Positions 8,600-8,705 of a stretch of DNA of 10,032 nt are shown here, in pieces; within the stretch, counting starts at the first letter, position 1, and every line of letters begins with the position of its first letter. A program made the translations under genes and the position numbers. The DNA comes from Escherichia coli (GTDB lineage Bacteria; Pseudomonadota; Gammaproteobacteria; Enterobacterales; Enterobacteriaceae): assembly GCF_036507355.1 (NCBI RefSeq), contig NZ_AP027880.1; one strand, given 5' to 3'. The notes under the pieces are model-generated. The model was not told the origin of the DNA, did no database searches, and saw only the letters and a program-made list of their open reading frames with translations.

Positions 8600-8670
8600 G
8601 CCGCCGCCTTTCCTTTGGTGTTGCCGTTGCGCCGCAGGCGCAGGGGTTCAGGGGCTTGCCCCTGACGCGC

Positions 8671-8705
8671 GTTTCTCGGCTTGCCGAGAAACAACTAAGC
8701 GCGCC
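8671..8705 (+). promoter_or_regulatory. oriT: perfect 10-bp inverted repeat GTTTCTCGGC-tt-GCCGAGAAAC followed by TAAGCGCGCC (nic region), RSF1010-like
   Basis: Matches the RSF1010 oriT architecture (GTTTCTC…GAGAAAC then TAAGTGCG^CCCT). Predicted nick near 8703/8704. A second hairpin lies at 8648..8665. Confidence 0.75.

Follow-up and report, generated by a model that had tools for sequence, protein, structure and literature searches.

The textbook MOBQ1 mobilization system is that of RSF1010 and R1162. The published in vitro substrates of its relaxase MobA are nicked at CAGTTTCTCGAAGAGAAACCGGTAAGTGCG/CCCTCCC, that is after TAAGTGCG (PMC4814116), and the catalytic residues of R1162 MobA are Y25, E74/E76 and H112/H120/H122 (PMC6856555). 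For MOBQ origins of transfer, the consensus NWACCNNTAAGTGCGCCCTYNN has been proposed (Francia et al. 2004, as quoted in PMC3832669). Transfer of R1162 falls drastically when its accessory gene mobC is lost; mobC is non-essential in MOBQ4 plasmids, and IncP-1 plasmids are a documented type of helper for RSF1010 (PMC6856555). The RSF1010 sequence quoted in an earlier note on the present DNA proved to be real: the 38-mer CCAGTTTCTCGAAGAGAAACCGGTAAGTGCGCCCTCCC was found exactly in 121 IncQ1-type plasmids, all of them typed mobilizable, and the nick TAAGTGCG/CCCT is the published one (PMC4814116). In the IncQ1 record L006, this 38-mer lies between mobA (minus strand, start 1420, MAIYHLTAKTG...) and mobC (plus strand, 1619-1903).

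Here we analysed a stretch of 10,032 nucleotides of Escherichia coli DNA (hereafter the window). The 801 bases around its oriT are 100% identical to p2017.17.01CC_2 (NZ_AP027824.1), a circular plasmid of 10,103 bp that carries an autotransporter gene and belongs to the human faecal E. coli strain 2017.17.01CC (Viet Nam). Relative to this entry the window reads along the opposite strand (window x = record 9174 - x). By its anatomy, the oriT is an expected variant of the textbook RSF1010/MOBQ1 system and falls in a traD-associated clade. We propose, with a probability of about 0.8, that positions 8648-8717 are the RSF1010/MOBQ1-type oriT of p2017.17.01CC_2 and a bona fide MobA-cleavable site. 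The features of the region are as follows.

7079-8599, minus strand: mobA, encoding a MOBQ relaxase of 506 aa (Pfam MobA_MobL, E = 5.8e-30).
8648-8665, plus strand: hairpin A, a G+C-rich inverted repeat TCAGGGGC-TT-GCCCCTGA (arms 8648-8655 and 8658-8665), perfect over 8 bp and present in the DNA fold.
8666-8670, plus strand: CGCGC between hairpins A and B, nearly invariant in the alignment columns.
8671-8692, plus strand: hairpin B, the main oriT inverted repeat GTTTCTCGGC-TT-GCCGAGAAAC (arms 8671-8680 and 8683-8692), perfect over 10 bp with a 2-nt loop; the predicted relaxase recognition hairpin.
8693-8695, plus strand: AAC spacer, unpaired, as neither C8670/A8693 nor the two positions that follow can form pairs.
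8696-8707, plus strand: nick core TAAGCGCG-CCTT, with TAAGCGCGCC at 8696-8705, an exact match in register with RSF1010.
8704-8717, plus strand: hairpin C, CCTTC-TATG-GAAGG, whose first base is the predicted nick +1 position (DNA fold and covariation).
8719-8748, minus strand: sigma-70-like promoter (GTGACA, 18 nt, TATGCT) pointing through oriT toward mobA, a consensus match only.
8793-8861, plus strand: 5' remnant of the accessory relaxosome gene traD, 23 codons; in tblastn, the 144-aa TraD of the relatives matches it over aa 1-23 only.

On the plus strand the order reads TCAGGGGCTTGCCCCTGA CGCGC GTTTCTCGGC TT GCCGAGAAAC AAC TAAGCGCGCC TTCTATGGAAGG. The perfect 10-bp inverted repeat followed by AAC and the core, as described in the earlier note, was confirmed base by base, with 100% complementarity between the two arms. 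The start at 8646 given there takes in hairpin A, although hairpins A and C were absent from that description.

The close parallel to the RSF1010 oriT that had been claimed was largely upheld. Both origins share the arms GTTTCTC..GAGAAAC, the 3 nt that follow and the core TAAGYGCG-CC with the nick before CC, all in the same register, and seven base pairs of hairpin B are identical to L006 1504-1520. The gene order is also the same, with mobA on the minus strand, oriT, and an accessory gene on the plus strand, so that the nicked strand reads away from mobA; the distance from the nick to the mobA start is 104 nt in the window and 111 nt in RSF1010. In addition, both contain a hairpin downstream of the nick and predicted hairpins upstream of the repeat, and the two regions fold in a comparable layout. 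A real difference concerns the base of the stem. The RSF1010 stem extends outward (CCA/CGG paired) and leaves the 8-nt spacer TAAGTGCG, whereas the stem in the window extends inward (CGGC/GCCG), leaving AAC unpaired and a spacer of 11 rather than 8 nt (AACTAAGCGCG). GAGAAAC and the nick are equally far apart in both origins. Two core positions differ from RSF1010, T to C at 8700 and C to T at 8706, and hairpin C starts at +1 rather than at about +5. The nick is predicted between G8703 and C8704 of the plus strand; its exact position is not certain because of the longer spacer and the two core differences. Alignment to the published MOBQ oriT consensus, in line with a check that had been suggested, yielded matches at 14 of the 17 specified positions of 8689-8710 (AAACAACTAAGCGCGCCTTCTA), the mismatches being 8693, 8700 and 8706. 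The two systems further differ in the accessory gene, which is of the TraD family (PF06412) in the clade of the window and mobC in RSF1010, and in the lack of mobB in the window.

Folding of the plus-strand DNA of 8640-8730 revealed three hairpins with a free energy of -25.3 kcal/mol (z = -4.9). In the minimum-free-energy fold, CGCGC (8666-8670) also pairs with GCGCG of the nick core (8699-8703), with no covariation. We do not claim this pairing as an element of the oriT, since both partners are invariant in the clade and the RSF1010 partner sits elsewhere. The RSF1010 fold contains an analogous GCGCAC/GTGCGC pairing.

The earlier note had placed the site directly upstream of a MOBQ relaxase gene, and this is indeed the case. 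The mobA start codon at 8599 is divergent from oriT; upstream of this codon, hairpin B lies at a distance of 72 nt and the predicted nick at 104 nt. MobA matches 2NS6, the crystallised relaxase domain of R1162 MobA, with an E-value of 3e-35, and shares 46% identity with RSF1010 MobA over about 210 residues. All six residues predicted to be catalytic could be aligned (Y22, E75, E77, H112, H124 and H126), so the relaxase beside the oriT has the motif I tyrosine, the motif II ExE and the motif III H..HxH. The first 237 residues are 93-95% identical to MobA of plasmids typed as MOBQ and mobilizable, namely Paracoccus plasmid III and the IncP-6-like GES/VEB plasmids. In contrast, the C-terminal half is unrelated to the Paracoccus and GES/VEB counterparts and almost unique in the databases; the protein also differs from RSF1010 MobA in this rare half, in its length of 506 aa and in having no primase domain. 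A word-indexed search with the C-terminal half returned only a fragment of a sister plasmid, and an exhaustive search returned 10 distant relatives. A full-length homologue of 509 aa with 63% identity (P0002) is encoded on a 3.4-kb contig with an intact traD and the same oriT layout. The possibility that residues 281-506 are a frameshift artefact was rejected on the basis of the coding-type GC1/2/3 composition (GC3 0.75, GC2 0.48), the distant relatives and the full-length homologue.

The window belongs to a clade of broad-host-range 'MOBQ1' plasmids with the arrangement traD-oriT-mobA, including KJ541068-71 (IncP-6-like GES-5/VEB-1), pLNU-11 (KX863568), pJARB-RN-0061 and small plasmids of Paracoccus, Comamonas, Xanthomonas and Nitrosospira. 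These share with the window an identical hairpin B, an identical nick core and the same gene order; they differ in having an intact traD (144 aa), unrelated MobA C-terminal halves and a longer hairpin C (CCTTCCGT-AAA-ACGGAAGG). No annotated or experimentally mapped oriT for the traD-associated clade was found in the records and literature searched, and a literature search for the core TAAGCGCGCC returned only irrelevant matches. The mobilizability of pLNU-11 is inferred only (PMC5641379). Identity of these relatives with the mob region of Rms149-type IncP-6 plasmids was considered and rejected, since Rms149, pCOL-1 and p10265-KPC carry a five-gene MOBP module (PMC4785139); therefore, mobilization data for that module cannot be borrowed.

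The Ti-type Dtr system (MOBQ2, with TraA and TraC/TraD) is the other system of comparison. The TraD of the relatives matches PF06412 (E = 5e-11), and the oriT similarly lies between divergent relaxase and accessory genes, but the 23 traD codons of the window fall outside the PF06412 domain. Against the NCBIfam models, MobA scores about equally with TraA_Ti (E = 7e-26) and MobQ (E = 7.5e-24), both far below the cut-offs. Only residues 47-255 match TIGR02768, scoring 90.8 bits where the cut-off is 590. TraA_Ti combines relaxase and helicase (its model has a length of 751, and those related to it about 1,000-1,100 aa), whereas the MobA of the window has 506 aa and no Pfam helicase domain. In addition, the nick core in the window is of the RSF1010 kind (TAAG-GCGCC) and traC is lacking.

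About 35 relatives share AGAAAC-NAC-TAAGCGCGCC. The genome scan with the pattern AGAAACNACTAAGCGCGCC yielded 32 contigs, among them contigs of Pseudomonas, Azotobacter, Burkholderia, Comamonas, Nitrosospira, Hydrogenophaga, Aeromonas and Acinetobacter; 4 of the 32 lack GTTTCT and look like chance matches. Both the NAC spacer and TAAGCGCGCC were dictated by the pattern, so that finding them constant in the scan contigs adds no independent evidence and shows the wide spread of the exact core rather than its conservation. Plasmid relatives found by similarity or via MobA carry the same core unchanged. The arrangement traD-oriT-mobA with this core was found on plasmids of Comamonas, Paracoccus, Xanthomonas, Nitrosospira, Pseudomonas, Salmonella and Klebsiella and on the IncP-6-like GES/VEB plasmids, and in all relatives examined the order is traD, intergenic region, mobA. 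The spacer is AAC, or TAC in two lineages. Little or no variation was seen across the scan sequences in GTTTCT/AGAAAC of the outer stem, in CGCGC upstream of it and in the post-nick CCTT/CCCT. The invariant 19-mer AGAAAC-N-ACTAAGCGCGCC would serve as a simple marker of the clade. In E. coli the clade is rare: 5,426 complete genomes gave 4 hits, and three of these are 2-kb oriT-only plasmids.

The stems themselves vary in a compensatory manner. Eight complementary versions of the hairpin B inner stem were found, namely CGGC/GCCG, CCT/AGG, CATC/GATG, CGAT/ATCG, TTTATT/AATAAA, CTTTCTG/CAGAAAG, ATGGATGA/TCATCCAT and CCG/CGG. A G+C-rich hairpin is always present at the position of hairpin A with varying sequence, e.g. 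GCAGGGGCTTCCCCTGC, GTCCCTTTAGGGAC, CTGCCGTCGGCAG, AAGGGGTCGAACCCCTT and CTGTCGCCGACAG, and at least 10 complementary stems occur for hairpin C, e.g. CCTTCCGT/ACGGAAGG, CCTTCTGC/GCAGAAGG, CCTTCCAA/TTGGAAGG, CCCTGAA/TTCAGGG and CCTTGT/ACAAGG. On a MAFFT alignment of 23 sequences, 87.5% of the cells of this structure are paired, compared with 43-59% when the partners are slid by 1-3 columns, and the covariation score of 0.197 (shuffled mean 0.089) was reached by none of 500 shuffles. On the same alignment hairpin C has 95.5% of its cells paired, with three of six pairs changed on both sides. The hairpin B inner stem is only 63% paired there, as long-armed variants lie in another register; for this stem, the anchored per-sequence analysis is the valid test, not the MAFFT pair count. 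Rolling-circle plasmids of 2,058 bp, which have a Rep_1 gene but neither mobA nor traD, keep hairpins A, B and C together with the core. Rather than regulating genes, hairpins A and C probably act in cis as parts of the oriT.

Within the window, four distinct perfect hairpins of at least 10 bp were found, compared with 0.17 start positions expected from first-order Markov simulations. Because such hairpins are enriched here, the 10-bp repeat alone is weak evidence. The nick core alone is not above chance at up to 2 mismatches either (5 found, 4.4 expected), the site at 8696 being the sole exact match. The composite pattern GAGAAACNNNTAAGYGCGCC, however, occurs once in the whole window with 0 mismatches, and 0.01 matches are expected at up to 2 mismatches. 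No second oriT was found near a second traD fragment at 1708-1887, and the core pattern is present in the window only at 8686-8705.

Taking RSF1010/R1162 as the model for cleavage, transfer and re-ligation, and starting from the hairpin, the 11-nt stretch and the MobA domain seen in the sequence, we propose the following cycle. The plus strand carries the recognition hairpin GTTTCTCGGC-TT-GCCGAGAAAC followed by 11 single-stranded nucleotides, AAC-TAAGCGCG. The divergently encoded MobA, with an intact HUH relaxase domain, the predicted catalytic Tyr22 and the predicted metal ligands His112, His124 and His126, would bind the single-stranded core together with the hairpin base and cut between G8703 and C8704, leaving Tyr22 covalently bound to the 5' phosphate of C8704. 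The coupling protein and the mating channel would be supplied by a co-resident conjugative plasmid. The strand would then be transferred 5' to 3', with the former traD side entering first and mobA and the hairpin last. Upon arrival at the 3' end, the hairpin might be recognised again and the strand re-ligated.

The strongest alternative is a recently inactivated oriT, true by descent, whose useful transfer has been lost along with traD and through the shedding of mobilization functions. The traD gene is cut after codon 23 at 8861, in the position and orientation expected for a divergent accessory gene; the PF06412 domain, at aa 76-138 of the intact TraD, is lost from this remnant, whereas traD is intact in all relatives examined. 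The second copy at 1708-1887 is a degenerate fragment, with its ATG directly abutting the end of a relE/parE-like ORF. Hairpin C is reduced to 5 bp, where most relatives have 7-8 bp. In the sister plasmid AP027811, which stems from the same survey, the nick core carries two substitutions (TAAACACG, against TAAGCGCG in all retrieved relatives), a 139-bp deletion lies beside the core and mobA is in six pieces; selection on the mobilization module is thus relaxed in this lineage, and the module is decaying. The plasmid p2017.17.01CC_2 itself is typed non-mobilizable by MOB-suite. On the other side, the mobA ORF in the window is intact, its GC3 is of the coding type along the whole length and no catalytic residue is missing, its relaxase domain shares 95% identity with the Paracoccus homologue, and the core and hairpins A and B equal those of intact modules base for base. 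Some MOBQ systems also dispense with accessory proteins (PMC6856555), and the MOB-suite call is probably an artefact, as discussed below. Loss of useful transfer is therefore possible yet unlikely, and we favour the functional, MobA-cleavable oriT. Given the truncated traD, we expect that transfer can occur, though perhaps with lower efficiency than in the relatives. We infer that p2017.17.01CC_2 is mobilizable, and efficient mobilization of the native plasmid seems somewhat more probable than its failure.

A second alternative is that the inverted repeats act only as operators or attenuators for divergent mobA and traD promoters, with no role in DNA processing. The sigma-70-like site at 8748-8719 on the minus strand, the sole promoter-like site within 8500-8900 (0.2 expected), overlaps an imperfect repeat at 8724-8745; it may drive mobA through oriT and would then transcribe through the repeats. 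The mob promoters of RSF1010 overlap its oriT and are autoregulated. However, the 2,058-bp plasmids retain all three hairpins and the core with neither gene left to regulate, no terminator-like site was found, and an Rfam scan of 8450-8950 matched no family. The core is, moreover, in register with the experimentally cleaved nick sequence (PMC4814116). A purely regulatory function is thus very hard to credit, whereas a regulatory role may exist alongside that of the oriT. As for a chance resemblance of the palindrome to RSF1010, the G+C-rich window does contain three other perfect hairpins of at least 10 bp, but this reading is refuted by the conservation data, the site being kept across at least three proteobacterial classes, always beside a MOBQ relaxase gene, and by the rarity of the composite pattern.

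The typing of the plasmid deserves comment. In PLSDB, p2017.17.01CC_2 is classified non-mobilizable (MOB-suite), although the same record annotates a MobA/MobL protein. A Salmonella plasmid of 4.7 kb with the complete traD-oriT-mobA module receives the same call, so that the call on p2017.17.01CC_2 is probably a coverage artefact. About 58 tiny oriT-only plasmids are also typed non-mobilizable (MOB-suite in PLSDB). The traD-associated oriT clade thus appears as a blind spot for mobility prediction in plasmid epidemiology. The same strain harbours a 51-kb IncP-1 conjugative plasmid, p2017.17.01CC_1, typed MPF_T and carrying mcr-1.1 and blaTEM-135, with genes for TrfA, the Trb operon, TraI/J/K and a TraG-type coupling protein. 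As RSF1010-type origins are classically helped by IncP-1 plasmids, the small autotransporter-carrying plasmid can plausibly spread with the co-resident mcr-1 helper.

Besides the apparently false 'non-mobilizable' typing, the conserved three-hairpin architecture and the oriT-only mini-plasmids are by-products of interest. We tentatively suggest, as an idea that we regard as possible but doubtful, that the three-hairpin layout is a previously undescribed functional unit of MOBQ1-type origins. Hairpin C might form a 5' hairpin of the T-strand or a cruciform that aids melting, initiation or termination without an accessory protein, and the 2,058-bp plasmids might be oriT-only hitch-hikers. If so, the widespread 'ColpVC' plasmids of 2,058 bp, found in Klebsiella, Salmonella and E. 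coli and typed non-mobilizable, would use the MobA of co-resident 6.9-kb MOBQ plasmids.

Among the three hairpins, hairpin C is the most distinctive part of the layout, being strongly covarying and kept on plasmids that have no relaxase gene.

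Mobility typing by MOB-suite in PLSDB assigned both the Salmonella 4.7-kb plasmid NZ_CP073716.1 and the plasmid containing the window (NZ_AP027824.1) as non-mobilizable, despite their evident MOBQ relaxase and oriT; in one of the two, the traD-oriT-mobA module is complete. In this clade, such calls appear to be systematic false negatives.

A second trace of a mobilization module and the following features were located in the window:

1708-1887, plus strand: second traD fragment, degenerate, IncP-6-like or Paracoccus type
2150-2280: direct-repeat array (four copies, each about 18-22 bp; GGGGGGTCCGATTTAACG...), adjoining the RepA gene
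2447-3442, minus strand: RepA gene (Pfam RepA_C)
6294-6986, plus strand: second initiator gene, Rep3-type
7082-7759, minus strand: MobA residues 281-506, the nearly orphan C-terminal half
5283-5537, minus strand: EexN-family entry-exclusion lipoprotein (record annotation)
31-1245, plus strand: autotransporter beta-domain protein (record annotation)

The second traD fragment starts at the exact end of a RelE/ParE-like ORF and retains codons 1-39 intact, followed by an internal deletion and a frameshift. No oriT was found upstream of this degenerate fragment. Its presence points to a mosaic plasmid carrying remnants of two different mob modules. The sister plasmid AP027811.1 comes from the same survey. 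Comparison of its positions 1760-2160 with window positions 8560-8960 revealed a nick core mutated to TAAACACG and the loss of window positions 8719-8857, with pieces of this stretch found again further downstream, and tblastn placed its mobA in six separate pieces. A segment of about 70 bp (window 8858-8927, CATCTGCTGACCTTAAC...GTCGTTGTCG) adjoins the mob module at differing points in the two plasmids, hinting that it is a small mobile or recombinogenic segment.

The strain carrying the window plasmid also harbors NZ_AP027823.1, a 51-kb IncP-1 conjugative plasmid with a full Trb/Tra transfer system and the genes mcr-1.1 and blaTEM-135, which could plausibly act as helper to the 10-kb plasmid.

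A 2,058-bp rolling-circle plasmid (Rep_1, 'ColpVC') occurs commonly in Klebsiella, Enterobacter, Salmonella, Shigella and E. coli. PLSDB holds about 58 records of this type, 2,050-2,090 bp in length and typed as non-mobilizable. Its representative NZ_CP034052.1 carries an oriT of the present clade but neither mobA nor traD:

NZ_CP034052.1, 1000-1100: complete three-hairpin oriT of the clade type

The TAC spacer variant of this oriT was otherwise found only in 6.9-kb MOBQ plasmids, which in addition encode a coupling-protein-like gene, and the two plasmids occur together in Salmonella Kentucky AH19MCS11 (pYUAHMCS11-2 and pYUAHMCS11-5). We propose the 2,058-bp plasmid as a candidate oriT-only hitch-hiker.

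Among 1.8 billion representatives, only 10 proteins matched MobA residues 281-506 at E < 1e-3, and no Pfam domain matched this region. The best match is a 509-aa relaxase on a 3.4-kb metagenomic contig with an intact traD. Contact with a coupling protein is one conceivable role of this C-terminal half.

The direct repeats at 2150-2280 probably serve the vegetative origin as its iterons. In addition to the RepA and Rep3-type initiator genes, PLSDB typing assigned a ColRNAI replicon to the plasmid. The EexN-family lipoprotein and the autotransporter are unusual cargo, being atypical for a 10-kb mobilizable replicon.

Pseudomonas bubulae NZ_UYJA01000014.1 contains, at about 2005-2070, a tandem pair of nick-core-like sequences spaced about 45 nt apart, with the RSF1010-like TAAGTGCGCCCTT first and TAAGCGCGCCCT second, and the repeat between them is much reduced (GTTTC-GTA-GAAAC).
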